A stretch of 64,000 bases of DNA from Bacteroidota bacterium (GTDB lineage: Bacteria > Bacteroidota > Bacteroidia > NS11-12g > UBA9320): NCBI GenBank assembly GCA_947468275.1, contig CANIKO010000013.1, positions 43,721-107,720 of the forward strand, read 5' to 3'. Under the pieces are notes generated by a model. It was given only the letters and a program-made list of their open reading frames with translations. It was not told the DNA's origin and made no database searches. This document shows, piece by piece, positions 29,801-64,000 of this stretch; position 1 is the first letter of the stretch, and each line of letters starts with the position of its first letter. The translations under genes were made by a program, and so were the position numbers.

Positions 29801-30788
29801 CGCCATTATATGCAAATCCTAAACTTCGTCCGACATCACACCCCACGTAATCATCCTTATAATTTCCCAAATCCGCATCCACCCATTCACCAAAATAAGT
29901 ATTATATAATGTGCTTGCGCCACGGTTAACAATTCGAGTAGTATAAAAAGTCATATTATTTATCTCATCATTTGATGCGTAAGCAAATGCAGTTGTATGC
30001 AATTCTAAGCCAATTGGTAAGGCTCCTGTTTCAGCATGATTATTTCCTTTATCATTATATACGAAATATAACATTTCTGTAGGTTGTGCTTCAGGTTTAT
30101 TATCATTAGTCCCATCTAACTTTACTCCTCGACACTCATTTTGCAAAACCGGATAATCTCCTGAAATTGGATCATATATTCCATTTTTATTAGCATCATA
30201 ATAAGGAGCCATTGGAGGGGTATTAGCAGATGGATTTCCAGGCCAACCAGCAATATTATCTGATAAAGTAGGTGCACCACTTGCAATATTTGTAACATGT
30301 TCTACTATTTCAGATTTCAATACCTTATAAATATTATCCCATTTTTTGCAGGTAACTTCATCGGTGTTGGACTGGTTATCAAGTGGTCCTGGCCAAAAGT
30401 CAGAACCGCCTTGTCTGTAGGTCATTGCAGCAAGCTTTAAGGCACCCGACCCACCTTTACCATCATAACCTCCTACCCAGATTGCTCCAGAAAATAAAGA
30501 ATGCTTTCTTACTGAGTTAACATTAGTAGCAATCTTTGGTATCTCATATTTCGGATTAGAAAGATCCCACCACATATCGCCACCGTTTAAAATTTTGGTG
30601 CGCACATTGTTTACATCCAGGTCAGCACTAGCTGTAGATGGATCACATGATGCTGCATACTTCATAAGTTTGTGAGCCACTATCGCAGGCTTCACAAGTT
30701 TTTCTCCAACATTTTCTTTTGCTATCAGGTTTGTTGCCACACCTAAAGCAAGTAATGAAAACAGTATAAATTTAATTGTTTTGTTCAT
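26817..30788 (-). CDS. Giant (1323-aa) secreted protein of unknown function with a beta-sandwich sorting-domain-like C-terminus (T9SS type A / FlgD-Ig-like)
   Basis: It has a signal peptide (FILFSLLALGVATNLIA). I recognise no catalytic motif. The C-terminus is VVPNPYYAYSDYE...CDISIYTIDGTLV...LWDMKNDAKVPIASGVYLIHINAPGLGEKVIKWMGVMRELDLDSF. Confidence 0.55.
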   Translation of the reverse strand: MNKTIKFILFSLLALGVATNLIAKENVGEKLVKPAIVAHKLMKYAASCDPSTASADLDVNNVRTKILNGGDMWWDLSNPKYEIPKIATNVNSVRKHSLFSGAIWVGGYDGKGGSGALKLAAMTYRQGGSDFWPGPLDNQSNTDEVTCKKWDNIYKVLKSEIVEHVTNIASGAPTLSDNIAGWPGNPSANTPPMAPYYDANKNGIYDPISGDYPVLQNECRGVKLDGTNDNKPEAQPTEMLYFVYNDKGNNHAETGALPIGLELHTTAFAYASNDEINNMTFYTTRIVNRGASTLYNTYFGEWVDADLGNYKDDYVGCDVGRSLGFAYNGDDNDEGILGYGLNPPSVGVDFFEGPKKDTLMNGRDTTFELGMSKFVYYDNDFTVYGNPERPIHYYYYLTGRWKNGTCMTLDYKSGRTGTNCTNYLFPFDTDPKVTGNWNERSAGNPAADRRFMQTSGPFTLKSGAFNKLTVGVVWARASTGGAEGSLALLKLASDKAQTLFNNCFVPLVGPPSTVTTVQELDNELIFMLGNTKKIESFSKTVLDANKNPQVYKFEGYRIFQCKDGSVGTGDLENIDKVREIFVADLKNNIIRLVNKPYDVTLGQALPKLMIDAPNKGLVHSLSIKEDAFATGSNKSLVDFKTYYYMVFPYAAAPLSKEDQYLLGEMEPIVATPRNTEPRLGGAKLNTSYGGGPRIKRIEGSGNGGNIIDLTTETELQIISTPPYKVLNPIYEVGKGPVKVSIIDPLKVPKGDFELVLIELKDSINLSGTASSIRKREAGVKGNVTRWIVIKKNIGGTPDTIFSEEKINIHNEQIITKGNKWQFASKRTDTAWYKEPAKLADWGMAVSIDQVLDPGNPDLDETNGALGCEVTFADKGKEWLSGMHDVDGVPFWNWLHSGTNGKAGGFSDPTENDYAINGNAIDPFESYEKLWEGRIGPYRLASRFTNNAGAKFTATIIQGVAYDGTPTNSQWGLYQLSSVEFVITPDKSKWTRSCVLEMSDDNILSEGSNKKFNLRAHASLDIDGKEIPGETGRSWFPGYAINVETGERLNIVFGEDSRQYSNNGRDMKWNPTSDAGFYANSGTGIIANGGRHYIYLMGSYQGAVVSQQPFLPGYDEGQAYYNILKDADNVMTETARSIIVNKVMYQCMYAIPAYLATGYKMKEVNGMPVPETEVRFKIRVKKPYRFYKTLDNSLNFDNPRYEFNTNEVFTEVAPKHGIKALDMINVVPNPYYAYSDYENTSIENRVKFTNLPMRCDISIYTIDGTLVRRIKKDDQSTDVLWDMKNDAKVPIASGVYLIHINAPGLGEKVIKWMGVMRELDLDSF

Positions 30789-30856: not shown

Positions 30857-33800
30857 TTAAAGAGTAAACCTTACTCCTAATCTCATTAATCTTGGTGCGG
30901 CATAATTAAAAGGATTATTAACACTGATGTTATACAAGTCAATAAATGATTGCTGACTTACTTGTTGAGAAATTTTTTGCTGTCCTTCTGGTGAACTTAG
31001 GTAACCATCATTATTAGGTAAGCCCGAGAATGCATAAACACTATTGACAATTTTACCATTGAAAAGATTTTGAACTGTAAAAAACACTGTTAAGCCTGTA
31101 ACATTAATCCTATCGTCTTTAATTTGTTTTTTCTTAAATTCATGATAGTGTTGAAAATTAACATCAGCCTTAAACTGCCAAGGCATTCTTGAACCAAAGG
31201 GATTTCCTTTTATTTGACTACGCGTTACTGTTCCTAGTGCCGTTTGTGCGGTCGCTGTTGGGCTTAAATTGGCTGTATAAGGGGCACCTGAACGGGCCAC
31301 AACAATAAAACTGGCATCAGAATTTGCAAATATTCGCTTTCCAAACCATACTGGACCATTATACTCCTTACCCCCTTGATACCCATAGCTAAATGTGGTA
31401 TTAAAATTATGACGAAAATCTACGTCTAAAGGATATAAGGAACGAAGATTAGGTTGATTTGCTTGAATTAACGCTGATTGAGAATTTATATTAGAACCTG
31501 TTCCATCAGCAAATAATAAGGTGTAATTGGCTGTCATTTGGAAATTCTTCAAACCTCTATATTGATATTCTGCCCTAAACGCTTTGTTGGTTGAAAAATC
31601 TATATTAGCATAACTTGTATATGAAACAGGGTAAGCTTGACTGTATCTATATTGTCCAAAATCATTACGAATTTCTGAATAGGACATAATTAAACTGATA
31701 GAGGATACATTGCTAAGCTTTTGTTTGTAACCCAATTCATACATAGTTTTAACACGTGGCTTTAGAGCCGCATTTGGCAAGAACCTGCTTTGATCGGATT
31801 GAAGAAAATAGTAGGAACTGATTGGGGTAAATGTAGCTCCATCAGTTGGGCGCTGAGTAAGCACATCGTAATTCGCAAAGAAAAGGGCTTCCTTGTTTAT
31901 AGGAAATGAAAACCAAACACGTGGTAATATATTTACTTGTGGTTGGTAATCTTTAAAGGCCTCCTTGACAATATCCTTATTATTTACATCAACTAAATAA
32001 GGTTGAATAACGTTGCTAGCAGTTTGTTGAGCTAAAATTTCAGGATTAGCTACTTCTACACCTTGAGCATCGTACCATGTATTGTTATTTCTGTAACCTA
32101 AAACCTTAGTAGGGTTCTTTGCATTATTTACATATATGGCATAGTTGTCGCCAATATTATCAGGATGATTTATTTGCAGACCATTCAATTCACTTACTTC
32201 CCCAACGGTTTTAATTGGATAAAGTGAATATGGATCTTTTAAGGTGGATTGATTAGCATCGTATCTTTCTACCCTAACCCCTACCCTGAAAATCATATCT
32301 TTTATAGCAAATTTATCTTGCAACCAAGCTGCACTGTATATCGGGGCAAATGAGCCTACACTGCGATTCTGTTTGTCATTCAAAAAATCATTAATCCCAA
32401 ATTTCTTGCGGGTTCTATTACCTAAATAATCATATCCAGAATAACTTACATACTGATTATTTTTATTATTCAAATCATCAGCACTAAACATATTTAAGTT
32501 AAGGTCATTGGGTGATAAGGAATTTACATCAATATAAGAAGTTTCCGTAATTTTATTTCCGTAGGCATCTACAGCCCCTTTTGCAATTAATTTAGCCCTC
32601 AAGTTTTTATCAAATGTAGATTGTTGGTCTGCATCTATACGAACATTATATTTAACAGTATCCAAAAACCTACCCTGATCATCATAGGATTGAGTGCTAT
32701 TTAACATATATTCACCTTGTTTCACTTGATCTAAATTAGCAATATGCTTATTAGCTAACTGAGGCATCAATATCCATAAGGAATTTGCACTTAAGCCATA
32801 AGAACTTAATATATTTTGTTCATAGGTCATACCAAACTGGATATCGTGTTTATTTTCTTTATTTTTCCCAGTGTTAATAGATGCCTCACCAATAGCATAG
32901 GCTGAAATTCTTTCCTGTTGGCTTTTACTATAGCCGGCTAATAAAGTACCAGGATTAGCCCATAATGAATAGGTAGTGGGCAGTGAATATCCATTTAGCA
33001 AACCATTAAATGTGGCGATCATCCCATCACTTATTGCGCCATTTAATCCATATGTATTCTTAAAATAATCAAAGGCATTTTCGGTATATCTGCTTCTTAA
33101 AACATTTTTATCACTCGCTTGATAAGTAATCATTGTGTCGCGAAATCCAGTAAGTTCATAATAACCTTGACGAACAACTGTATCGCTTTTTCCATTTTTA
33201 GTTTCAATAAATTTTTGTGGGGCATCTTTATATTCATATACTGGTGCACGGTAATGAGTAAATTTACCTACATATCCATAATCAAACACATTATCTTTAT
33301 GCTCACTGGACTGACTTTTACCAATACTTGTTTGGTAATCGGCACGTATTGAATAAAATGCATCAGAAACCAAAGGTTTTTTAGCATCCTTGTCTTTCTT
33401 GTCTCCACTTTGATAACCAATTTTTTGGGTGTATCTTAAATATCCACGATACGTTTGGTTGGTATTTAATGCATATTCATCAAAATTTAACAATGAAGAA
33501 GTATAACTATAGCCTTTCGTTTCTTGAATAGCGCCAGTTGCGAACAAGGTTAAAACCGAGCTTTTGGAAGGTGTATATTCAAATTTTGCATTTAATACAC
33601 CTGAATATAATGGAACGTTTTGACGAGCCTTATTCAGTACCAAATCATTTTGGGTTAAAAATGATGACGTAGTAATAAAACCTCCTCCGCTCGGATTAGT
33701 AGTTAATGGATTTTGCTTGATATTGTTCAGAACATCATCTTTTACTGTCCATGAGCCCAATACCGTTGGACTAGGATCTTTTTGGTACTCTAAATGTCCT

Positions 33801-34639
33801 GAAATATTATAACCTATTAGCACCCGTTCTTTGTCTCCACCGCCCCTATTAATAATTTTTATTGGACCTGAATAGGCTAATTCTAGGGTATTGTAATGCC
33901 ACTTATCAAAAAGACTTGAAGTTACATACTCATAGTATTGAGATCTTCTTCTGCTAGGGCCTTTGGTTGTAATATTAATGGCTCCCCCTGTAAGGTCACC
34001 AAACATTGCAGGTACCCCGCTTTGAATAAGGTCGATTTGCTCCTGACCAATAGTTGGCATTGCCGAGCTACCTATAACCGCTACACCATCTACAAACAAG
34101 CGTGTACCATCCGTTCTATTACCCAAAAATGAAATACCACCTCCGGATGAGTTTACACCCGACGAGGTATTTGCAATAGCCGCTAGGCCTCTTTGTGGTA
34201 ATTTTAATAGATCTTTTGATGTAAGTGTGTTTTTATTTGCATCTTCTTCTACTAATTTCTTTCTATAACGAATAACATCTACTGCACCTAAATCTTTTCC
34301 ATCTTCACTTGAGATGGATAATTCGATATTCCAAAACGTTATTTTACTACTGTTTACAGTTACTCCTTCAGCCTGATATTTTGTATATCCAACATAGCTT
34401 ACTTCAATATTGTATTCTCCAGGATCAATTCCTTTTATAAAATAATTACCGTTGTCATCGCTTGAAGTAGAAGCTTTCACAATTCCTTCTTTTTTTACCA
34501 CTACTGTGGCATAATCAAGCGCTGAACGTGTTTTTTTGTCTGTAACTTTTCCTCTAATCTCACCATAATTCGATTGGGAGTATCCCAAACCTGACAAGAG
34601 TAATAGTACCAAAACGCTTAAGTAATGTTTTAAAGTCAT
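30857..34639 (-). CDS. TonB-dependent-receptor-like outer-membrane protein with an N-terminal CarboxypepD_reg-like domain (1260 aa)
   Basis: It has a signal peptide and a CarboxypepD_reg-like segment (GEIRGKVTDKKTRSALDYATVVV..PGEYNIEVSYVGY). A plug-like segment follows (ISFLGNRTDGTRLFVDGVAV..PAMFGDLTGGAINITTKGP). The C-terminus is barrel-type (PRLMRLGVRFTL). Confidence 0.75.
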   Translation of the reverse strand: MTLKHYLSVLVLLLLSGLGYSQSNYGEIRGKVTDKKTRSALDYATVVVKKEGIVKASTSSDDNGNYFIKGIDPGEYNIEVSYVGYTKYQAEGVTVNSSKITFWNIELSISSEDGKDLGAVDVIRYRKKLVEEDANKNTLTSKDLLKLPQRGLAAIANTSSGVNSSGGGISFLGNRTDGTRLFVDGVAVIGSSAMPTIGQEQIDLIQSGVPAMFGDLTGGAINITTKGPSRRRSQYYEYVTSSLFDKWHYNTLELAYSGPIKIINRGGGDKERVLIGYNISGHLEYQKDPSPTVLGSWTVKDDVLNNIKQNPLTTNPSGGGFITTSSFLTQNDLVLNKARQNVPLYSGVLNAKFEYTPSKSSVLTLFATGAIQETKGYSYTSSLLNFDEYALNTNQTYRGYLRYTQKIGYQSGDKKDKDAKKPLVSDAFYSIRADYQTSIGKSQSSEHKDNVFDYGYVGKFTHYRAPVYEYKDAPQKFIETKNGKSDTVVRQGYYELTGFRDTMITYQASDKNVLRSRYTENAFDYFKNTYGLNGAISDGMIATFNGLLNGYSLPTTYSLWANPGTLLAGYSKSQQERISAYAIGEASINTGKNKENKHDIQFGMTYEQNILSSYGLSANSLWILMPQLANKHIANLDQVKQGEYMLNSTQSYDDQGRFLDTVKYNVRIDADQQSTFDKNLRAKLIAKGAVDAYGNKITETSYIDVNSLSPNDLNLNMFSADDLNNKNNQYVSYSGYDYLGNRTRKKFGINDFLNDKQNRSVGSFAPIYSAAWLQDKFAIKDMIFRVGVRVERYDANQSTLKDPYSLYPIKTVGEVSELNGLQINHPDNIGDNYAIYVNNAKNPTKVLGYRNNNTWYDAQGVEVANPEILAQQTASNVIQPYLVDVNNKDIVKEAFKDYQPQVNILPRVWFSFPINKEALFFANYDVLTQRPTDGATFTPISSYYFLQSDQSRFLPNAALKPRVKTMYELGYKQKLSNVSSISLIMSYSEIRNDFGQYRYSQAYPVSYTSYANIDFSTNKAFRAEYQYRGLKNFQMTANYTLLFADGTGSNINSQSALIQANQPNLRSLYPLDVDFRHNFNTTFSYGYQGGKEYNGPVWFGKRIFANSDASFIVVARSGAPYTANLSPTATAQTALGTVTRSQIKGNPFGSRMPWQFKADVNFQHYHEFKKKQIKDDRINVTGLTVFFTVQNLFNGKIVNSVYAFSGLPNNDGYLSSPEGQQKISQQVSQQSFIDLYNISVNNPFNYAAPRLMRLGVRFTL

Positions 34640-48282: not shown

Positions 48283-50535
48283 ATGAAAAAACATCTACTT
48301 CATCAATTTCTTTTAGTTCTTCTATGCCTTCTTTTTAGTAATTTTTCGAATGGGCAAGGAATCCCCGAAATATTATACTATAAGTTTAACAATACGGGAA
48401 CATCTGTTCCTAATCTAGCGAGTTCACCACCTTCTGGCACTTCTAATGGAATCGTAAATGGAGGACTTACCATAGGAGGGACAGTTGCATGTGGCAGTTC
48501 AGCATTAATTGGATCAGGCGGAACAAGTAATACCGATTATTTGGATACCAAATGGGCAACCTCTACTTCCGGTTCTTGGACGATATCATTTGTTACCGAT
48601 AGTATTTTAAGTACCACAACCTTGTATTATTTATTTAGTGATATTACTTCGAGTTCATTGCGATGTTTTACAGGCGGCGTTGCAGGTGCCGGAAATTGGA
48701 TAATTAGAGGCGGCTTTAATGATGTATTAATAACTGGAGGAGCTTCAACAACACCTGCAGTAAATACAATTGTATATGATGCAGCTTCCAGCAATTTTTA
48801 TGCTTATTTAAATGGAAAATTAGTAAATACTGTGGCACAAACCAGTTTCACACAAAGCAGTACCGGAACATTAATTTTATCAGGTTATAATTCTTTAAAC
48901 GGTTTGACTCCAAGAGGCAAATTAGACGAGTTTAGATTTTATAGCCATGCTTTAACTGCTAAAGAAGTTGCAAGATTAATGTACACAGGCTCCTCCAAAG
49001 GAAATGTTAACCTTGTGGCATGTGGAACCTCATTTAAAAGCCCAAGCGGAAAATTTACTTGGACCAAAAATGGAACCTATTACGATACAATACCTAACGC
49101 CGTAAGTTGCGACAGTTTTATGACTATAAACCTTAGTTTTAAAAGTCATTCCTATGCTACTATCAATCCGATTGCCTGTGATTTTTTTGTTGGCCCTAGC
49201 AAAACTGCTTTTTGGACTAAATCGGGAATTTACACGGATAAAATCCCAAATAAAGCAGGATGCGACAGTATTATCACAATTAATTTAACCATTAAAAACA
49301 GCACTAGCACTTTACTTAAACTAAGTAAATGCGATAGCTATAAAAGCCCAAGTGGAAAATATATCTGGACCACTTCGGGGAAATACTATGATACCATTCC
49401 TAATAAAAAAGGTTGCGACAGTTTGATTACGATAACACTTACAATGGGCAAAACTAGCACTAATTCCTTTTCAGTGAAGGCATGCGACAAGTATAAAAGC
49501 CCAAGCGGAAAAAGAACTTGGACGACTGCAGGAACTTATAGGGATACTATTGTGAATACATCAGGCTGTGATAGTATTTTAACAATTAATTTAACTTTGA
49601 ATAAAAGCACAGCTAAAGCTATTACGGTTAAAGCGTGTAACAAATATAAAAGCCCGAGTGGAAAATACACATGGTTAAATTCAGGAACTTTTATGGATAC
49701 AATCACTAATAAAAAAGGTTGCGACAGTCTAATTACGATCAATCTTACTGTAAATAAAAGCACTTACGTTCAAATTAGTCCGATTACCTGTGGAACCTAT
49801 ACTAGCCCAAGCGGAAAATATACCGTCAATTATACCACCTCATTTTTCGACACCATTCCTAATGCTAGGGGGTGCGATAGTATTATTTTGATTGATGTAA
49901 AGGTTTACCCCAAAACTTCTGCCACCATTTCACGTACTGTTTGCAAAAGATTTATTAGTCCAAGTAAAAAATATATTTGGACCATTTCGGGAAAATATTA
50001 TGACACCATTCCTAATCGCAAAGGGTGTGATAGCTTAATTACAGTTAATCTTACTATTAATAATGTCACAGTGGCCGTTTCGCAAAAAGGCCCACGATTA
50101 ACTGCATTGGCTGATGGTGTTAATTATCAGTGGTTAAATTGCACCACTAATTATCAAAAAATATCAGGGGAAATCAATAAGGAATATATAGCTACGGCTA
50201 TAGGAAAATATGCAGTTGAGGTAACCGAAGGGTCTTGTGTTGACACATCTATATGTCTTGATGTAACCAATTTACCCGTTGATAAATTCAATAGTAATAA
50301 CTCGCTTTCCGTCTTCCCTAATCCTGCAAACGGGCAGTTTACAATCTCATCAGGCAAACCTTTAAATAATGCATCTATAAAAGTGGTAAATGCTTTGGGC
50401 GAACTCATAATACAAAAATGCAATGTCTTTGGAAGCTCGGTATTTATTGATATTTCAGGCCATAGCAATGGAATATATTTTATCGAAATAAGCGAAAAAG
50501 AAAATTCAGGTAGGGTAAAATTGATAAAGTATTAA
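48283..50535 (+). CDS. Secreted protein with a LamG/ConA-like N-domain, seven 51-52-aa two-Cys repeats and a T9SS type A CTD
   Basis: It has a signal peptide and a LamG-type motif (GKLDEFRFYSHALTAKEV). The repeat consensus is C.KYKSPSGKYTWT.SG.Y.DTIPNKKGCDSLITINLT. The CTD is LSVFPNPANGQFTIS...NGIYFIEISEKENSGRVKLIKY. Confidence 0.65.
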   Translation: MKKHLLHQFLLVLLCLLFSNFSNGQGIPEILYYKFNNTGTSVPNLASSPPSGTSNGIVNGGLTIGGTVACGSSALIGSGGTSNTDYLDTKWATSTSGSWTISFVTDSILSTTTLYYLFSDITSSSLRCFTGGVAGAGNWIIRGGFNDVLITGGASTTPAVNTIVYDAASSNFYAYLNGKLVNTVAQTSFTQSSTGTLILSGYNSLNGLTPRGKLDEFRFYSHALTAKEVARLMYTGSSKGNVNLVACGTSFKSPSGKFTWTKNGTYYDTIPNAVSCDSFMTINLSFKSHSYATINPIACDFFVGPSKTAFWTKSGIYTDKIPNKAGCDSIITINLTIKNSTSTLLKLSKCDSYKSPSGKYIWTTSGKYYDTIPNKKGCDSLITITLTMGKTSTNSFSVKACDKYKSPSGKRTWTTAGTYRDTIVNTSGCDSILTINLTLNKSTAKAITVKACNKYKSPSGKYTWLNSGTFMDTITNKKGCDSLITINLTVNKSTYVQISPITCGTYTSPSGKYTVNYTTSFFDTIPNARGCDSIILIDVKVYPKTSATISRTVCKRFISPSKKYIWTISGKYYDTIPNRKGCDSLITVNLTINNVTVAVSQKGPRLTALADGVNYQWLNCTTNYQKISGEINKEYIATAIGKYAVEVTEGSCVDTSICLDVTNLPVDKFNSNNSLSVFPNPANGQFTISSGKPLNNASIKVVNALGELIIQKCNVFGSSVFIDISGHSNGIYFIEISEKENSGRVKLIKY
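49015..50090 (+). repeat. Tandem coding repeat array, 7 units of about 153-156 nt
   Basis: I counted the units from the translation (52, 51, 51 ... aa from Cys to Cys). Several units share long near-identical nucleotide stretches, for example tataaaagcccaagYggaaaata and aaaaaaggttgcgacagt. Confidence 0.85.
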
Positions 50536-53545: not shown

Positions 53546-55543
53546 TTATTTAAAAATTGTAATCTTTTGTGAAATTTTGAAATAAGAATTTTTAACCATC
53601 AATGTATAAATACCATTGCTAAGGTTCTGAACATCTATTCCATAATTCATTTCATCTATTTTGTAAAAAGACAAACCCACTTCTTTCCCATAAATATCAC
53701 TTAGATAAAAATAGAGATTTTCAGATTTCAATTCATTTCCAAATTGAACAGTTAATTTAGAATTTGCCGGATTGGGATAAACAACAAATTGAATTTTATT
53801 TTTAAAGTATAAGGAAGATGGTGATATTGAAATAGGCATTGAAAAGGTGTCAGTACCACAATTATTAGATACAACAAGTTTTGGATTGAAAACACCGCCA
53901 GATTTTGGATATTCATAAAAAGCATCCCTAGTCTTTGCGGTGACATTTTTATTATCAAATAACCAAGTATAACTGCAATCACCTGTTGAAAGATTCTTGA
54001 AAATAATCTTTGTATCAGCAATACTATAAGAAAAATAGGCTGTTGGCATACAATTATATTTCACTAAAGTCATAGAACGATTGCTTCCACTAGAATAATT
54101 AAATTCTCTTTTTCCTAAACCAAGTTCAGCATGATATGGGATATTGCCTCCAATATAAATATTTCCATTATTTGCTAAAATACCAGCAGGGTTTGAAAAT
54201 GTATAATTAGCATTAGGTTTAGTTGACAAATACCAAAGATCTTTTAATCGATTGCTAGTGGTATAAGTTGCAAAAAAATCAGATCTAACATCTATTGGTC
54301 TCGTTTTTAGATAATCCTTTGCAAAAACTGATGTTCCTTTAAATCCAAAATTCTGATTTCCACGAGTAGCAGCTGTTATTGAGTACAAGCTATCATTATA
54401 CACATCAGTAATATTGAGGTAATCATAACAGCTATCAAAAAAATTAATAAACTTGTGTTTTAGCGTTGCCGCATTGAAAACATTTATAAAATTATTATGA
54501 TAGGTTTGACTTAAATAAAAAGAAAATGAATCTGCACCAATTTTTATTTTACTTAAACCCAATCCTGCAAAATAGCTGTTCAATACCAGCGTACTATCGT
54601 TGCCTTTAAACTGAATTGGATTAAAACCTGCTAAACTTTGGTCATTCATTGAATGTTGAATTGAAGTAAATTGTTTAATATGCCCCGTAGAAGAGGCAAA
54701 CTCGGCAATAATGGTTCTACCATTTTTAGTAGAAGTAAAGACTATACTGTCTTTGTTATTATAAATTATTGTGTTTCCACCTATCGCTACATAAATGGAA
54801 TTGCGAGTTTCATTTATATATAGATTTGTAACCGATGAAACTCCTTCGTCAATCCACTCCACCCCATTGGTATTATTTAATTTCATCAAAAATGATACAC
54901 CATTTGCTGATTTATTTTTTGCTATTGATTTGCTATTAAATACTAGGCTATCAAAATAACCTCCTCGAATAAAAATATTTCCAACTTTATCAATGGCTAT
55001 TTCATCAATACCTCCTCCTTTGTAATTAGAAAATGGATAAGAAGTTATATAATTGAGATTTGTATCATAAATTATTAAGAAAGAAGCCGGGGTGTTTATA
55101 TCCTTTTTAATAATTTTTTTCCAAGGCATAGTCATATTAAATCTAATACTATCACTGGTTGTAGAAAAGCTACAATAAATAAAATTATTATGTTTATTAT
55201 AACAGATACTCTTTACATATTCTTGCGCATCTCCATTCGGTGTTTGTATTATTTGAGAATTTTTAACTTCTAAATTTTCATCAAAACTAACTAAATAAGC
55301 ATCTGAATTATTATTGCTACCTGTAAGTATAGTTTGGCCTGTACTTGTTACACCTACATTTTTAGAACATGTTCGACTTGATAAAATTATCTGATTATCA
55401 ATATTTGCCAGATAACAAATAGGTAAAAACACTTGACTATTCACTTGTCCCTTCGCGGTCAATGTCTCTAAAGTTTCTAAACGCTGAGCGTTAATAACAC
55501 TAGTATGATAAAATAACAAGAGCAAGATTAGAACTTTTTTCAT
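53546..55543 (-). CDS. Secreted protein of unknown function with a PKD-like domain and a T9SS type A CTD
   Basis: It has a signal peptide and a PKD-like segment (FKNLSTGDCSYTWLFDN...NPKLVVSNNCGTDT). The CTD is FVVYPNPANSKLTVQF...NGIYTLMVKNSYFKISQKITIFK. Confidence 0.6.
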   Translation of the reverse strand: MKKVLILLLLFYHTSVINAQRLETLETLTAKGQVNSQVFLPICYLANIDNQIILSSRTCSKNVGVTSTGQTILTGSNNNSDAYLVSFDENLEVKNSQIIQTPNGDAQEYVKSICYNKHNNFIYCSFSTTSDSIRFNMTMPWKKIIKKDINTPASFLIIYDTNLNYITSYPFSNYKGGGIDEIAIDKVGNIFIRGGYFDSLVFNSKSIAKNKSANGVSFLMKLNNTNGVEWIDEGVSSVTNLYINETRNSIYVAIGGNTIIYNNKDSIVFTSTKNGRTIIAEFASSTGHIKQFTSIQHSMNDQSLAGFNPIQFKGNDSTLVLNSYFAGLGLSKIKIGADSFSFYLSQTYHNNFINVFNAATLKHKFINFFDSCYDYLNITDVYNDSLYSITAATRGNQNFGFKGTSVFAKDYLKTRPIDVRSDFFATYTTSNRLKDLWYLSTKPNANYTFSNPAGILANNGNIYIGGNIPYHAELGLGKREFNYSSGSNRSMTLVKYNCMPTAYFSYSIADTKIIFKNLSTGDCSYTWLFDNKNVTAKTRDAFYEYPKSGGVFNPKLVVSNNCGTDTFSMPISISPSSLYFKNKIQFVVYPNPANSKLTVQFGNELKSENLYFYLSDIYGKEVGLSFYKIDEMNYGIDVQNLSNGIYTLMVKNSYFKISQKITIFK

Positions 55544-56257: not shown

Positions 56258-56323
56258 AAAAAAGTGAACGGCGAAAATAAAACTATATTTCGCTACTCTC
56301 AAAAATGCATTAAGTTTGCAATT

Positions 56324-57067
56324 GTGGGTAACCTATATTTTGCATCCGATTTTCATTTGGGTGTTCCTAATGCACAGGAAAGTTTAATTCGTGAACGAAA
56401 ATTAGTGGCTTGGTTGGAATCAATAGCCCCCAATGCCGAAGAAATCTTTTTGGTTGGGGATGTTTTTGACTTTTGGTTTGAGTATAAATATGTAGTACCA
56501 AAAGGTTACACCCGTTTGTTGGGATGCCTTGCCAAATTAGCGGATAGCGGAATAAAACTCCATTTTTTTAAAGGCAACCACGATATGTGGATGTTTGGTT
56601 ATTTCGAACAGGAATTTGGAGCCACGGTGCACAGCAATGAATATATTTTTGAACGGGGTGGAAAGAAATTTTTTATTCATCACGGAGATGGCCTTGGCAA
56701 AGGCGATGAAAATTATAAACTGTTGAAAAAAATATTCAGAAGTGAATTGTGCCAACGTACGTTTGCATTTTTGCATCCTTCCATAGGTATTGGTTTAGCT
56801 AATTATTTTTCATCCAAAAGCCGCTTGGCTCAAATGCAATTTGAAAACGAAGAGATTGATATTGAAAAAGAATGGTTGGTGCAGTATTGCAAAGAAGTAT
56901 TGCAAACCACTCATTACGATTATATGATTTTTGGACACCGTCATTTGGCATTGGATATACCGATGGGCAATAATTCGCGGTATATAAATCTGGGGGATTG
57001 GTTTAAGTTTTATTCCTATGCCGAGTTTAAGGGAACAGATGTTGAGTTGTTAAAATACAATCCATGA
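56324..57067 (+). CDS. lpxH: UDP-2,3-diacylglucosamine diphosphatase (metallophosphoesterase)
   Basis: It has YFASDFHLG, GDVFDFW, GNHD and HGD. The GTG at 56324 gives the N-terminus MGNLYFASDFHLG, typical of LpxH. The track start at 56264 is also GTG. Confidence 0.8.
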   Translation: MGNLYFASDFHLGVPNAQESLIRERKLVAWLESIAPNAEEIFLVGDVFDFWFEYKYVVPKGYTRLLGCLAKLADSGIKLHFFKGNHDMWMFGYFEQEFGATVHSNEYIFERGGKKFFIHHGDGLGKGDENYKLLKKIFRSELCQRTFAFLHPSIGIGLANYFSSKSRLAQMQFENEEIDIEKEWLVQYCKEVLQTTHYDYMIFGHRHLALDIPMGNNSRYINLGDWFKFYSYAEFKGTDVELLKYNP

Positions 57068-57948
57068 TAACATTAGCCACCAAATCACAAAAACACAAAA
57101 GAATCACGAAATGCTTTGTGAAACATGGTGCCTTTGTGCCTTCATGGCAAAAATTTTTAATCCTTTTAATTCTTTTTTGTTCTTTTAGCCTAACGCCTGA
57201 ATTTAGTTTGGAAGGTGAAATAAAAGGCCAGTTTAAATTTTTTACCACCGATAAATTGGGAAACGTATTTGTGTTAACTCAAAAAAATGATATTCAAAAA
57301 TTTGATAAAAAAGGCAAAAAACTAACCGAAGCAAATTTTAAAGTAATGGGCGATGCTACAATGATAGACGCCGGAAATCCTTTGGAAATTTATGTTTTTT
57401 ATAAAGACCAAAACAAATTGGTGTATTTTGATAATATGCTAAACTACCGCGGTGAAACCGACCTCTACAAAACCCTTGGAGTAAATAATATTCAGGCTGT
57501 TTGCCGCAGCTATGACAATGGTTTTTGGTTTTTTGACCCTGATAATTTTAAGCTTAAAAAAGCCGACAAGCTGGGCAGCCTTCAATCAGAATCTATTAAT
57601 TTGGCCAACATAGCTGATACCATTTTAACCCCGCAAATGCTTTTGGATGATGGAAAATTTGTTTACCTAAAAACCAATAACGACCGCCTTTTAGTATTTG
57701 ATATTTTAGGAAATTATATCAAAACCATTCCTTTGGAAAAATTCACTTCGTTCCAAGTAAGGGAAGAAAAGATAGTGTATTCTACGTCCAAAGATTTATT
57801 CGTTTACAATCCTTCAACTTTTGAAAAAGATTCATACAAACTAAGTTTAAGCCAAAATTTCAGTACCTCTAATTTTTTAAGTATTCGATTAGAAAATGAC
57901 CGACTGTATCTTCAGGATTCAGTTAAGATTGGGATTTATTCGTTTTAA
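57064..57948 (+). CDS. Hypothetical protein, possibly exported
   Basis: Its ATG overlaps the lpxH stop (ATGA). The N-terminal ~30 codons coincide with a REP-like hairpin element, so the true start is uncertain. FLILLILFCSFS looks like a signal h-region. Confidence 0.45.
   Translation: MITLATKSQKHKRITKCFVKHGAFVPSWQKFLILLILFCSFSLTPEFSLEGEIKGQFKFFTTDKLGNVFVLTQKNDIQKFDKKGKKLTEANFKVMGDATMIDAGNPLEIYVFYKDQNKLVYFDNMLNYRGETDLYKTLGVNNIQAVCRSYDNGFWFFDPDNFKLKKADKLGSLQSESINLANIADTILTPQMLLDDGKFVYLKTNNDRLLVFDILGNYIKTIPLEKFTSFQVREEKIVYSTSKDLFVYNPSTFEKDSYKLSLSQNFSTSNFLSIRLENDRLYLQDSVKIGIYSF
57077..57158. repeat. Second REP-like hairpin-forming element: (T)CACAAA(A) arms followed by CTTTGTG arms
   Basis: The sequence is ccaccaaatCACAAAaaCACAAAAGaatcacgaaatgCTTTGTGaaacatggtgcCTTTGTGccttcatggcaaaaa. 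It has the same architecture as the element at 50538-50638. Confidence 0.5.
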
Positions 57949-59600: not shown

Positions 59601-59690
59601 GTTAAAAGTTAAAAACGGAAAAATTTGAAAAATATTGCATCTATATTAGTTCTAATTCTCATCAGCTGTCAATCCATTAATAAAAAAAAT

Positions 59691-60071
59691 ATGACAAAAT
59701 CTATAATAAATACCCCAAATGCTCCGGCTCCAATAGGGCCTTATAACCAAGCAGTGCTTAGCGGAAACACTCTGTATGTTTCAGGTGCAATTGCCATTGA
59801 AGTTTCAAGCGGCCACATGATTCAAACCGACATTGAAGCCGAAACCCATCAGGTAATGAAAAACCTTGGGGAAATATTAAAAGCCGCCAATATGGATTAT
59901 TCTAATATTGTAAAGTCAACGATTTTTGTAACCGACCTTGGAAATTTTGCAAAAATAAATGCTGTATATGGCAGTTATTTTAAATCGGATTTCCCGGCTC
60001 GCGAAACGGTTCAGGTTTCAGCATTACCGAAAGCGGCAAATGTTGAAATTTCTGTGATTGCGGTGAAATAA
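59691..60071 (+). CDS. ridA: RidA/YjgF-family reactive-intermediate deaminase
   Basis: From the ATG at 59691 it is 126 aa: APAPIGPYNQAV..GNTLYVSG...FPARETVQVSALPKAANVEI. An upstream in-frame TTG (59625) would add a lipoprotein-like signal (see findings). Confidence 0.85.
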   Translation: MTKSIINTPNAPAPIGPYNQAVLSGNTLYVSGAIAIEVSSGHMIQTDIEAETHQVMKNLGEILKAANMDYSNIVKSTIFVTDLGNFAKINAVYGSYFKSDFPARETVQVSALPKAANVEISVIAVK

Positions 60072-60125: not shown

Positions 60126-61625
60126 TTAAAACCGAGAGGTAAAGGTAATAACCATTGTGTTTCCTGAAAACTTATTATCGGCAAGCGCCTGTGGACGAGT
60201 TTTATCATTTAACACATACGGTTGAAAAACATCTTTGCCAAGGGTATGAACCAAACCAAAATCTAGCGCCCAGGTTTTGTCCCTTATTCCCAAACCTCCG
60301 GTTACATAATCCAAGCGTTGGCTATTATTGGTGCTTTGCAAAAAGGGTGAACCATAACTAGCAAAACCCCCTCTTAATCTAAACTCGTCCATTACCAGTT
60401 CCCCTCCCACTCTATAATTAAGGGCAGTGGTATATTTTTTGCGAATATCATCATTGGCTATTTCCATAGCATTGTTTCCATCAGTGCTTCTCAATCGCAT
60501 GGCTGAATAATCCACACCCTCCAAATCAGCACTTATAAAACCCTTTTTACCCATAATTCCGGTAGCACTTAACGTATAACGCCCTGGCGTTTGCAGGCTA
60601 TAGCTATAATCCCCCTTTTTGCTGTCAAAATTAAAATTTGTACCATTACGGATAGTTGAATTTATTGAAAAATCATAGTTATCGGTTAAGTTAATAATTT
60701 GTGGGGTTTGAAGACTTGCTCCTAATCTTAAATAATCATGTGGTTTTATAATAATCCCTAATCTACCTGAAAACCCGCCACCACGGGTATGTAAATTTTC
60801 GGAATACGTAAAATTATCCATTGAATAAGGACTCACATTAGCAGGATCATTTGTTTCAGCATGAGTTCGGGTTTCTTTAAAATTAACCGAAGTATAACTT
60901 AAGGTTGCTCCCAAATAAACCACATCACTATAATTGCCGGCCAATGAAAAATTATACTCATTCATCCCACCGCTTTGTTGCAAAACACCTTTTTGATTTA
61001 TGTTGTGAAATATAGGGCTAGCATTAGCAGTATATTTTTTGTCGCCTGTTGAATCAAAAAGATACGCTTCCCAGGCCATAGTTGTTTTTGAAGAAAACCC
61101 ATTATCAAAATCATCGTTAGATGCACGAATTTGATTAACAGTTGAACCATTAGCCCGTTCTGCAAAATAATCCATTAAGCTAGTTTGAGTATTGATACCT
61201 TCAAAATTGATAACACGATTAAAATCAGCCACTTTAGCCATATTCACAGCGAACGAATAATTTTTCCATCCACGTTCGTCTTTTTTGGCAGCGGTTGGAT
61301 TTGCAAACACTAACCCAAAATTGGGAATATTCATTTTAAATGCATTGTCAGAAACTGAGTTATTTAAATACGTACTCACATTTTTATTATTGACAAATCC
61401 CGCCGAAAAACTGAACTCCCCCTTTTTATATTGGGCCAATCCTGCTGGGTTTACGGAAGCGGATGAAACATCAGCCCCTAACGAACCAACAGCCCCGGCA
61501 ATGGACATGGACTTAGCAGTACTTCCAAATTTTTTATTGGTATAACGAATGGCATCAGCGTCATTTTGTGCCATGACTTGGAAACAAAAGATTCCCATAA
61601 AGCCTGTTACTATAAACTTTTTCAT
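60126..61625 (-). CDS. FadL/OmpP1-like outer-membrane beta-barrel protein
   Basis: It has a signal peptide (GFMGIFCFQVMAQ) and the N-terminal pattern DAIRYT...GSTAKSMSIAGAVGSLGADVSSASVNPAGLA. It has alternating-strand character and the C-terminal ...MVITFTSRF. Confidence 0.55.
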   Translation of the reverse strand: MKKFIVTGFMGIFCFQVMAQNDADAIRYTNKKFGSTAKSMSIAGAVGSLGADVSSASVNPAGLAQYKKGEFSFSAGFVNNKNVSTYLNNSVSDNAFKMNIPNFGLVFANPTAAKKDERGWKNYSFAVNMAKVADFNRVINFEGINTQTSLMDYFAERANGSTVNQIRASNDDFDNGFSSKTTMAWEAYLFDSTGDKKYTANASPIFHNINQKGVLQQSGGMNEYNFSLAGNYSDVVYLGATLSYTSVNFKETRTHAETNDPANVSPYSMDNFTYSENLHTRGGGFSGRLGIIIKPHDYLRLGASLQTPQIINLTDNYDFSINSTIRNGTNFNFDSKKGDYSYSLQTPGRYTLSATGIMGKKGFISADLEGVDYSAMRLRSTDGNNAMEIANDDIRKKYTTALNYRVGGELVMDEFRLRGGFASYGSPFLQSTNNSQRLDYVTGGLGIRDKTWALDFGLVHTLGKDVFQPYVLNDKTRPQALADNKFSGNTMVITFTSRF

Positions 61626-61652
61626 AATTTTAAAAAAGATCTCAAATATTAC

Positions 61653-63278
61653 TTATCTACCTCTGCCTCTTGAAGGAGTTGATGAAGAACCTCCTCCTGA
61701 ATTACCTCCACTTGACGAAGGAGAATATCCGCCGCCGCCTCTACTTCCACCACCGTCATAAGAACGAGGGGAAGGAGAACTTTGCCTTTGGTAATTATTA
61801 TTGGCAGGTTGATCATTTTCTCTACTTCTGCTTTCGGCAGGTTGGTATACTCTGCCGCGAGTATTTCGTTCCTCCTTGGGTTTTTGGTAAGTAGCATTCG
61901 GAGTATTATCTTGCTGATAAGATCGTGTAGTATTTTCTTTTGTTTCAGTATTTCTTCCCCGTGAATTTGGTGTTGAACTACCATTATTTGAGGGGGGGTC
62001 GTTACCACGTGAAGGAGAATCATAGCTACTTTCTTCCATTGTGTTAGTTCGATCTATTTCCCTTCTTCTGCCTGAATTATCTCCGTTACCTCCATTTAAT
62101 GTCCCATTATTATTACTATACACCCTTTCTGAACTGCTATTATCAGATGATCTTGCGGTTGCATTACTCCCATTATCTGGCACAGCAATCACCTCTTTAT
62201 TTTTATCAGTCATTCTAGAACGAGAATCTGTTGGATTATTACTACCATCATTTCCACCCATTGCACCTCTTTTATCATTTTTAGGATCATAAGTCGTTCC
62301 GCCTTTAGGATCTTGCTGAACCATCCCTCCCCTGCTTCGAGGTGAAATTTGATCATTACGCGAGTTAGATGGTGTATTACTGCCTATGGATTCACGAGGG
62401 CCTGTCATTTTTCTTTTATCAGGAATATAACCGCTACCATTGTTTCCACCATTATTTATTGAATATACATGCACAGGACGATACCAAGGGCTATAATAAT
62501 TATTATAACCTCCATATCCATAATTATTGCCGTATCCATAATTTCCATACCCATAACTGTAAGGATTGTAATAGCCATAAGGAGTTCCACCATTATAAAT
62601 ATTAGAGTAGTAGCCCCAACCTCCTGAATATCCGTACCAAGGATCGTAAAAATTATTGTAACATGGGTAATAACTTGTTCTCCAACCCCAGGCAGGATAA
62701 CCATAATTATATCCTCCGCTCCAGCCGTTCCAAGTATTATAACCTACCCAAAAGCGATTTCTAGTAGGCCTATTCCATCCCCAAGTTGGGTTGCGATAAT
62801 AAGAGTTGTAATAACCGCCGCCCTGTCTGTAATTATTATATAAAGCATCACTATACCCATTATTATAGCCATTGCTGTAACTACCACTGTTTCTAAATCT
62901 GTTGAATGAATTTCCATATGAAAAATCATCGTCATCATCATAGTTGTAATTATTATTGGTGGATGAATTATTATAGGTTGTAGAATTATTGTTATTGCTA
63001 TTATTTGAAGTACTGTTTGGTTCTCTAACAATTTCTTCGGCTTCTCCATCTTTATACTTTTTATAAGCGGGTTCATCTGCAGCTGGGGTCACGGTTTGAT
63101 AATTACCATTGTCCACCTGTTTTTTCTCACTTTTCTTGGTTAAAACCTCCTTCTCATCATCCTTAGAAGTTGAGTATATATCATCATACTGACCCAGATT
63201 ATTATTTCCGTTTTGTTGCAATGAACTGCATGAAACAAAAACCAATAAAATAACGCTTAATTGTAAAAGTGTTTTCAT
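61653..63278 (-). CDS. Low-complexity lipoprotein with a Tyr/Gly/Asn/Trp-rich core and an Arg/Ser/Asn/Gly-rich tail ending in RGG-like repeats
   Basis: It has a signal peptide plus lipobox (LSVILLVFVSC). The frame stays open for 541 aa through DNA that also yields spurious ORFs in other frames. It sits 27 nt upstream of the FadL-like gene on the same strand. Confidence 0.6.
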   Translation of the reverse strand: MKTLLQLSVILLVFVSCSSLQQNGNNNLGQYDDIYSTSKDDEKEVLTKKSEKKQVDNGNYQTVTPAADEPAYKKYKDGEAEEIVREPNSTSNNSNNNNSTTYNNSSTNNNYNYDDDDDFSYGNSFNRFRNSGSYSNGYNNGYSDALYNNYRQGGGYYNSYYRNPTWGWNRPTRNRFWVGYNTWNGWSGGYNYGYPAWGWRTSYYPCYNNFYDPWYGYSGGWGYYSNIYNGGTPYGYYNPYSYGYGNYGYGNNYGYGGYNNYYSPWYRPVHVYSINNGGNNGSGYIPDKRKMTGPRESIGSNTPSNSRNDQISPRSRGGMVQQDPKGGTTYDPKNDKRGAMGGNDGSNNPTDSRSRMTDKNKEVIAVPDNGSNATARSSDNSSSERVYSNNNGTLNGGNGDNSGRRREIDRTNTMEESSYDSPSRGNDPPSNNGSSTPNSRGRNTETKENTTRSYQQDNTPNATYQKPKEERNTRGRVYQPAESRSRENDQPANNNYQRQSSPSPRSYDGGGSRGGGGYSPSSSGGNSGGGSSSTPSRGRGR

Positions 63279-63308
63279 GATAAAAATATTTAATTATGCA
63301 TTTAGTTT

Positions 63309-63316
63309 TAACTTTG
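63309..63316 (+). promoter_or_regulatory. Candidate -7 box TAACTTTG, 52 nt upstream of proS
   Basis: Exact TAnnTTTG match. Confidence 0.35.
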
Positions 63317-63367
63317 CATTTTAATAAAGACAATTCCTATACCAAAGATACAACATAAAATTAATAG

Positions 63368-64000
<633 letters not shown>

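Follow-up and report, generated by a model that had tools for sequence, protein, structure and literature searches.

A predicted disordered lipoprotein paired with a FadL-family barrel beside proS across Bacteroidota

The stretch of DNA analyzed here (the window) is 64,000 nucleotides long and belongs to contig CANIKO010000013.1 of a Bacteroidota genome assembly. The study concerns two neighboring minus-strand genes near its end. The first, here called gene X, lies at 61653..63278 and encodes an outer-membrane (OM) lipoprotein of 541 amino acids predicted to be disordered, as indicated by its open reading frame (ORF), its ratio of nonsynonymous to synonymous substitution rates (dN/dS) and AlphaFold. 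The second, at 60126..61625, encodes a 499-residue OM protein, the barrel, which was assigned to the FadL family by its AlphaFold model, Foldseek matches, family profile and the Pfam family PF03349. The two are separated by a spacer of 27 nt on the same strand (61626..61652), which contains no terminator-like hairpin. On the other side of X, a divergent intergenic region of 89 nt (63279..63367) leads to the 5' part of the prolyl-tRNA synthetase gene proS (63368..64000, plus strand). Both ORFs, their coordinates, the 27-nt spacing and the lipoprotein signal at the start of X (MKTLLQLSVILLVFVSC) agree with the initial annotation, which had been made from the sequence alone.

The composition of X is strongly biased. 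Residues 121-270 contain 37 Tyr and 10 Trp, exactly as first counted, with the dipeptides GY, YG, YN and WG present 13, 10, nine and three times, respectively. The aromatic core as delimited here, residues 111-270 (62469..62948, minus strand), is distinguished by composition, by invariant positions and by the lowest dN/dS of the gene. It includes 39 Tyr, 10 Trp, 28 Gly and 26 Asn, Tyr making up 25% of it and GY or YG occurring 23 times. Against the background of the other ORFs of the window (Tyr 4.7%, Trp 1.1%, Tyr and Trp together 5.8%, Arg 3.1%, Lys 7.2%), the binomial probability of at least 47 Tyr and Trp per 150 residues is about 4e-22, and that of at least 29 Arg in the 255-residue tail, 11% of which is Arg, about 3e-9. 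The tail (residues 287-541) has 22 residues of Ala, Val, Leu, Ile, Met, Phe or Cys among its 255, carries a net charge of +10 and includes two RGG, eight RG and ten SR. The earlier description of it as nearly free of hydrophobic residues, Arg-rich and ending in RGRGR was borne out; with only two RGG, the segment is more aptly termed rich in Ser, Asn, Gly and Arg than an RGG box. Tandem Repeats Finder detected a single repeat in X (18 bp, 2.4 copies), and the codons used for Tyr, Asn and Gly are mixed; for these two reasons the composition is not regarded as a DNA microsatellite artefact.

Codon alignments to the closest relatives, with barrels 88-91% identical, gave dN/dS values of 0.06 for the aromatic core, 0.12 for the conserved block following it, 0.15 for the N-terminal region and 0.26-0.30 for the tail, all with synonymous sites near saturation. 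The lowest ratio, and with it the strongest constraint within X, is that of the low-complexity core. By this measure of substitution the frame is under purifying selection and X is a real gene; a reading frame broken in close relatives had been named in advance as the finding that would speak against it, and the frame is kept. The homologue search that the initial annotation had proposed recovered an X family with 65 unique full-length members of 212-685 amino acids, all intact in frame, whose lengths are bimodal (212-319 and 397-685 amino acids). On one metagenome contig (L004, 4270-5965) X was called as three ORFs of 178, 77 and 313 amino acids, and on the near-identical contig L005 it is intact with 564 amino acids. 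In this low-complexity sequence the split in L004 probably reflects a frameshift introduced by assembly, though the copy may be a pseudogene.

The predicted signal peptide and lipobox occupy residues 1-17 (63228..63278, minus strand) and end in FVSC, with Cys17 as the putative lipidated residue. A lipobox is present in 65 of 65 full-length homologues. The Bacteroidota lipoprotein export signal, taken in its BamH-type form, requires two or more acidic residues no further than six from the lipid Cys. In 64 of the 65 homologues no acidic residue is found at positions +1 to +6, and in 45 a basic residue is present there, so that X is considered to lack the export signal. The membrane-proximal motif YDDIYS (63171..63188, minus strand) corresponds to a family consensus DDVYY located 10-15 residues past the Cys. 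In an alignment of 20 sequences D32 and Y35 (mature D15 and Y18) are invariant and D33 is nearly so, and the DDxYY motif, mostly as DDVYY, was found in 59 of the 65 homologues by one pattern and in 57 by a second. A polar linker characterizes the family as well; at its end there is often a patch of acidic and aromatic residues and then a basic patch, as in DDDDDFSYGxSFxRFR or YYDYAYSSR(I/L)RRFH.

In the window copy, the aromatic core holds the DDDDDFSYGxSFxRFR block together with WGWNRPxRxRFWVGY, PxWGWRT..PC.N and YDPWYGY, and many of these positions are invariant among close relatives. Such a core was present in all 64 homologues analyzed. When the cores of the family were pooled, Tyr, Trp and Phe made up 27.9% of residues against a background of 11.2%; lineages differ in whether their cores favor Tyr and Gly, Trp and Asn, or Phe and Gly. 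The sole element with a predicted fold is a beta-hairpin, RFWVGYNTWNGWSGGYN (residues 175-191; 62706..62756, minus strand), the strands of which AlphaFold places at 158-164 and 168-174 in mature numbering, in a block with a predicted local distance difference test score (pLDDT) of about 70. After the core there is a block recognized by its conservation, GPRESIGSN...R.DQISPRSRGGM (residues 293-319; 62322..62402, minus strand). It is invariant in relatives down to 53% barrel identity, and a GPRxS-like motif is present in 35 of the 65 members of the wider family.

The protein ends in a variable, polar and polycationic segment, residues 346-541 (61656..62243, minus strand), delimited by composition and by its higher dN/dS and closed by the RGRGR already mentioned. 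Tails of the family were net positive in 64 of 64 analyzed, with a median charge of +14 and lengths of 27-380 residues. The share of Arg among their Arg and Lys residues is 0.76, compared with 0.30 in the other proteins of the window. In a few lineages Lys takes the place of Arg, which makes positive charge the firmer constraint on the tail. The C-termini are basic (GRRR, GRGR, GRRN, KPRK), with at least two basic residues among the last five in 59 of the 65 homologues. Repeats occur in the tails of some relatives: (E)EPRRVEPRQ about eight times in L005:4271-5965 and, through about 150 residues of the homologue at L012:3345-4943, repeats of the TPSRSxSPSRS type; the window copy has none. As judged from these alignments, what the X family conserves is its architecture and composition, a 'grammar' of Tyr-rich core and Arg-rich tail, and not its sequence.

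Neither Pfam nor NCBIfam scans of X gave a match, nor did ten distant homologues scanned against Pfam, and the X profile searched against PDB sequences returned noise only. Also the sorting domains of type IX secretion systems (T9SS), Por_Secre_tail and CHU_C, were absent from X in the Pfam scan. With AlphaFold, residues 18-345 modeled from a 20-sequence alignment had a mean pLDDT of 43 and formed no domain; X is accordingly predicted to be intrinsically disordered without a globular fold, which answers the call of the initial annotation for a disorder prediction. Its statement that no characterized family has this architecture also agrees with Pfam, NCBIfam, PDB and the literature, and by these comparisons X belongs to no described family.

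An exhaustive profile search with X yielded 25 representatives at E ≤ 1e-3, and the architecture was defined from these; their small number is explained by the fast drift of the X sequence. A word-index protein search with the alignment of the core found five homologues, mostly truncated or frameshifted, although intact ones are present on contigs of the same collection, so this index under-samples the family. A metagenome scan seeded by the core alignment picked uninformative patterns and confirmed nothing. Retrieval of low-complexity families such as X from metagenome gene sets is systematically incomplete, and their members are often mis-called there.

The AlphaFold model of the barrel (pLDDT 88, predicted template modeling score 0.82) is a beta-barrel of 14 strands. 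Foldseek matched it to FadL, TodX, TbuX and CymD with E values of 1e-15 to 1e-18 and target TM-scores of 0.57-0.67. The top fold matches, which include FadL, TodX, TbuX and the BamG proteins of Bacteroides thetaiotaomicron, Porphyromonas gingivalis and Flavobacterium johnsoniae, are 11-15% identical to it, FadL and BamG being at 12-14%. Against PDB sequences the profile of the barrel family found TbuX (3.5e-10), a Pseudomonas aeruginosa FadL homologue, CymD, Escherichia coli FadL (1e-5) and PorV (3e-4), and PF03349 (OmpP1/FadL/TodX) was matched by 16 of 30 family members, at best with 4.4e-16. The window barrel itself had no PF03349 match at E ≤ 0.1 and also missed the NCBIfam thresholds. The original recognition of the barrel as FadL-like is upheld by its fold, by the family profile and by these PF03349 matches.

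The N-terminal hatch region of the barrel, residues 20-69 (61419..61568, minus strand), contains a conserved QNDxDA(I/L)RY and the motif Asn-Pro-Ala (NPA), and it aligns with the NPA region of FadL and TbuX. In 30 sequences down to 25% identity, N59, P60 and A61 (61443-61451) are invariant; of the mature N-terminus (A)QNxxDA(L/I)RY, Q20 is invariant and D24 and R27 are conserved in at least 90% of these sequences. From the predicted mature N-terminus to NPA there are 39 residues, and in E. coli FadL about 32 residues precede NPA (N33-P34-A35), making the conserved N-terminus of the window barrel about seven residues longer. Between strands 3 and 4 the barrel has an insertion of about 60 residues (146-208; 61002..61190, minus strand), modeled as helices and a hairpin and conserved as DYFAE...AWE.YL.D, which by analogy with FadL topology is probably extracellular.

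The barrel family includes at least 4654 proteins at E ≤ 1e-20 among 8000 candidates scored, labeled as Chitinophagales (Niabella digestorum), Cytophagales, Saprospiraceae, Bacteroidales or simply 'Bacteroidota', and the closest match of the window barrel in the genome collection is a 91% identical barrel on a contig of a metagenome-assembled genome. As its fold matches reach only 11-15% identity, the barrel is placed within the FadL family yet in a separate subfamily, and not as an orthologue of BamG. BamG orthology was considered for Fjoh_1412, Bt4367 and the P. gingivalis BamG and rejected, the corresponding chains (9n2d_B, 9hiv_F, 9hjm_F) being about 13% identical in the fold alignment; no BamG chain was found at E ≤ 10 in the family-profile search of PDB sequences. 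The barrel family is a new and very large subfamily of the known FadL fold.

Gene order around the barrel is highly conserved. Barrel homologues inspected singly at 88, 67, 53, 38, 33 and 31% identity all showed proS divergent from X and X followed by the barrel; the 31% homologue comes from a cultured organism, Algoriphagus hitonicola. Another 80 loci, with 29-75% identity, came from scanning metagenomes with the conserved peptides of the barrel N-terminus and NPA region as seeds. Among the 72 distinct loci in which 400 nt or more of sequence are available upstream of the barrel, an X-like ORF lies directly upstream in all 72, in 70 by a strict test and in two whose ends are slightly less basic but which are clearly X; the median gap between the two genes was 42.5 nt in 70 related loci. 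A divergent proS, detected by tblastn with prolyl-tRNA synthetase, is present in all 53 loci with enough further sequence, at a median intergenic distance of 93 nt. The initial annotation had proposed checking for a pair conserved upstream of proS. The conservation is there, but proS is divergent, on the plus strand and 89 nt away. Downstream genes differ between lineages, so that the conserved unit consists of proS, X and the barrel. The spacing, the shared strand and the universal pairing suggest that X and the barrel are co-transcribed.

The intergenic region between X and proS contains two candidate -7 boxes in interleaved positions, judged by the Bacteroidota consensus TAnnTTTG, since a sigma-70 scan is not meaningful for this phylum. 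The X-sense box, TATCTTTG (63343-63350, minus strand), is near the start codon of proS, and the proS-sense box, TAACTTTG (63309-63316, plus strand), is near that of X. The latter (CAAAnnTA) is found in 53 of 55 distinct intergenic regions; the exact X-sense box is found nearer proS in 22 of the 55, with near-matches in others. Provided that both are functional, the promoters would be interleaved, with transcripts overlapping at their 5' ends by about 14 nt. The exceptional synteny of proS and X would then be explained, because moving either gene would break the promoter of the other, and coupled or competing transcription of the two would be suggested.

Presumed counterparts of the pair, by gene order, are named in a study of TamL in F. 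johnsoniae, where Fjoh_4939 is proline-tRNA ligase (PMC12045153 and its preprint), Fjoh_4940 is a signal peptidase II lipoprotein without export signal, classed as periplasm-facing and having neither assigned function nor domain annotation, and Fjoh_4941 is a FadL homologue (PMC12045153). Both Fjoh_4940 and Fjoh_4941 were detected in OM fractions, Fjoh_4940 with an average of 46 peptides compared with 45 for BamG, and upon TamL depletion they rose 2.6- and 5.6-fold, respectively, in these fractions (PMC12045153). The only remark of the authors on the pair is that the gene proximity 'might indicate a functional link' (PMC12045153). Considering that proS synteny holds in 53 of 53 loci, Fjoh_4940 and Fjoh_4941 are very probably the orthologues of X and the barrel. 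A profile built from the barrels of seven candidate Flavobacteriia loci, the taxonomy of which is not established, found no named Flavobacterium among the at least 4654 family members, and literature searches returned no characterization of the pair beyond the TamL paper and, among the papers available, no further mention of Fjoh_4940 or Fjoh_4941.

The combination of a FadL-like barrel with a cognate lipoprotein has a precedent in the same phylum. The Bacteroidota beta-barrel assembly machinery (BAM) described in 2025 includes BamG, a FadL-family barrel. The conserved extended N-terminus of BamG exits through a lateral opening, and BamG holds the surface lipoprotein BamH by its lipidated N-terminus, which is also conserved; a second pair, BamH2-BamG2, is paralogous and encoded in a putative operon (PMC12611786, PMC12578637). 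The window pair resembles BamG-BamH in having a 14-stranded FadL-family barrel with a lipoprotein, an extended conserved barrel N-terminus, a conserved peptide beside the lipid anchor of the partner and a phylum-wide distribution. It differs in that BamH is a folded, carbohydrate-binding-like surface lipoprotein with an export signal, whereas X is predicted to be disordered and lacks the signal. In BamG a conserved N-terminal extension of about 10-12 residues threads the lateral opening; the mature N-terminus of the window barrel is conserved, with 39 residues before NPA.

Among other FadL-like proteins, the classical transporters FadL, TodX and TbuX (E. coli, Pseudomonas putida and Ralstonia pickettii) share with the window barrel the predicted 14 strands, the N-terminal hatch and NPA. 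The window barrel is about 70 residues longer, has the insertion between strands 3 and 4 and a longer conserved N-terminus, and is always paired, unlike these transporters, which have no disordered lipoprotein partner. PorV and PorQ, the shuttle and anchor proteins of T9SS, are FadL-like barrels of the same phylum that bind proteins and not small molecules, and PorV was a weak match of the family profile; however, the window barrel has no NCBIfam or Pfam PorV/PorQ match, X has no T9SS domain and the pair lies outside any T9SS gene context.

For X itself, the likeness to the FUS family concerns composition only, a Tyr-rich segment spaced by Gly, Ser and Asn being followed by an Arg-rich polar one. 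X is different in being lipid-anchored and also rich in Trp, in having only two RGG and no RNA-binding domain, and in the replacement of Arg by Lys in a few lineages. Curli (CsgA/CsgG) and Fap (FapC/FapF) likewise combine a compositionally biased envelope protein with an OM protein encoded beside it, but X is lipidated and has neither imperfect repeats nor a predicted beta-solenoid, and its barrel is a monomeric plugged FadL fold; no curli or Fap nucleator or chaperone genes were found among the neighbors in the window or at the related loci. LpoB and RcsF of E. coli consist of a lipid anchor, a long disordered segment extending to another layer of the envelope and a folded functional end domain; the disordered segment of RcsF is positively charged and associates with barrels. 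X is like them in its lipid anchor and long disorder, has no end domain and shows no homology to them.

As far as gene order and sequence can tell, X and the barrel form a two-protein OM module conserved across Bacteroidota. The reading preferred here, held tentatively and with somewhat less than even confidence, is that X is a periplasm-facing disordered partner of a FadL-type channel with a role in envelope homeostasis. X would be exported by Sec, lipidated at Cys17 and placed in the OM's inner leaflet, facing the periplasm because it lacks the Bacteroidota surface-export signal. The DDxYY motif and the aromatic core would dock onto the barrel, the membrane interface or both, and the net-positive tail with its basic C-terminus would extend into the periplasm and bind anionic partners, for instance peptidoglycan or the head groups of phospholipids. 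In this way a lateral-gate channel for hydrophobic molecules would be linked to the periplasm, and the module may thereby contribute to the homeostasis of the envelope or of lipids.

Several points weigh against this reading. Contact between X and the barrel, complex formation, binding partners and role are all inferred, and so is the orientation, which follows from the export-signal rule only. The conserved insertion between strands 3 and 4, if extracellular, could instead be a sign of a partner on the surface or of a substrate from outside, and a strict pattern of the hairpin matches 22 of the 65 X homologues, about a third. The assignment of Fjoh_4940 and Fjoh_4941 as orthologues comes from gene order, not from sequence, the rise upon TamL depletion is common to many OM lipoproteins, and the literature records no substrate or phenotype for the pair.

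Another explanation makes X mainly a tether or spacer: a disordered, OM-anchored polycation that attaches to peptidoglycan or to the inner membrane and so stands in functionally for envelope-spanning lipoproteins of the Lpp or LpoB type, with the barrel as a dock and without transport. The invariably positive tails of free length, expanded by repeats in some relatives, the basic C-terminus and the missing export signal all suit such a function, and FadL-like barrels of this phylum repeatedly serve as docks (BamG, PorV). Nevertheless it is rather unlikely, as the barrel retains transporter hallmarks that a pure dock would not need (NPA, the N-terminus and the large loop insertion) and the strongest constraint falls on the aromatic core of X and not on its tail. 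X may also self-associate via contacts of Tyr and Trp with Arg. As an extension of this, X could be a lipid-tethered 'sticker-spacer' polymer, in which Tyr and Trp stickers and the Arg-rich tail would produce a cohesive phase, like that of Phe-Gly nucleoporins or condensates, at the periplasmic (or outer) face of the OM round the FadL-type channel, acting as a selective sink or conduit for hydrophobic molecules or as a sensor of envelope state. This is distinctly unlikely; if true, a phylum-wide envelope function would be carried by composition and not by fold. The initial annotation had suggested that X is exported as a self-assembling surface matrix, adhesive or amyloid with the barrel as its own export partner. 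This model, or a milder one in which the barrel helps X to the cell surface and X serves there as an adhesive or matrix that assembles itself or as a coat binding lipopolysaccharide, is quite improbable. Its Tyr/Gly/Asn/Trp composition does resemble adhesive and prion-like domains, a similar composition is seen in extracellular loop 3 of Bacteroidota BamA, which is flexible and rich in Tyr, Gly and Asn (PMC12578637), and both the loop insertion of the barrel and the holding of surface lipoprotein BamH by FadL-like BamG would fit. Yet 64 of 65 homologues carry no export signal, the published classification of Fjoh_4940 has it facing the periplasm, a T9SS C-terminal domain is missing from X in a genome that does use T9SS, and neither amyloid-type repeats nor a beta-solenoid in the AlphaFold prediction were found. 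Also the idea of a curli- or Fap-style export partner does not hold: the barrel, plugged like FadL and provided with the N-terminal hatch and an invariant NPA, is not a pore of the CsgG or FapF type, and protein secretion by plugged FadL barrels is not known.

A very improbable alternative is that the pair is a paralogue of BamG-BamH, working with BamA in the biogenesis of OM proteins or lipoproteins. The gene logic is that of the BamH2-BamG2 operon, BamG structures are among the top fold matches, the barrel N-terminus is conserved and extended as in BamG, and both proteins rise under envelope-biogenesis stress. On the other side, identity is about 13%, the family profile finds FadL, TbuX and PorV and no BamG chain, and X has neither the BamH fold nor the export signal. 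Three BAM purifications, as far as their available text goes, name BamA, BamD, BamG and BamH with BamM/P in F. johnsoniae or BamI-K in B. thetaiotaomicron and P. gingivalis, and Fjoh_4940 and Fjoh_4941 were not found in the available part of the supplementary files of the F. johnsoniae BAM paper. Finally, the extremely low complexity of X and the division of the L004 copy into three ORFs could suggest a chance ORF in compositionally odd, noncoding DNA. This is effectively refuted by the dN/dS of 0.06-0.30, by the 65 intact homologues keeping the lipobox, DDxYY and the basic C-terminus, by the intact copy in L005 and by the syntenic F. johnsoniae lipoprotein seen by mass spectrometry.

Some other features of the window are recorded here. 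T9SS C-terminal domains are present in four window genes (17779-22598, 48283-50535, 53546-55543), three of them Por_Secre_tail and one CHU_C, which identifies the host as a T9SS-bearing member of Bacteroidota. Two adjacent minus-strand ORFs of 1323 and 1260 amino acids lie at 26817-30788 and 30857-34639, the first without a Pfam match and the second with only an N-terminal CarboxypepD_reg-like one. An ORF of 294 amino acids without a Pfam or NCBIfam match (57064-57948, plus strand) overlaps by 4 nt with an upstream gene of the Metallophos family (56264-57067), and the same two genes are found together on the related contig L001. The RidA/L-PSP gene (59625-60071, plus strand), when read from the first listed TTG start, has the lipoprotein-like N-terminus MKNIASILVLILISCQS; its true start is probably an internal Met at residue 23, because relatives are called at 125-126 amino acids. 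Rfam and tRNA scans of the window were empty.

Bacteroidota dominate polymer degradation in the gut, the sea and soil, and their OM is built unlike that of E. coli, BamG and BamH, discovered in 2025, being an example. The pair described here is a new variation on the theme of a FadL-like barrel with its cognate lipoprotein in this phylum, one in which the partner is disordered, as far as prediction goes, and its composition conserved. It is about as conserved as the core components BamG and BamH and is locked to a housekeeping gene, with X having no domain, structure or assigned function, and the presumed F. johnsoniae orthologue of X appears to be abundant in the OM fraction. The candidates Fjoh_4940 and Fjoh_4941 allow direct tests in a tractable organism. 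A function of X carried by its conserved composition would make it one of the rare functional disordered proteins of the bacterial envelope, and if the preferred reading of a periplasm-facing channel partner is true, the pair would represent a new type of accessory for FadL-type channels, with a bearing on lipid homeostasis, permeability and the entry of antibiotics.

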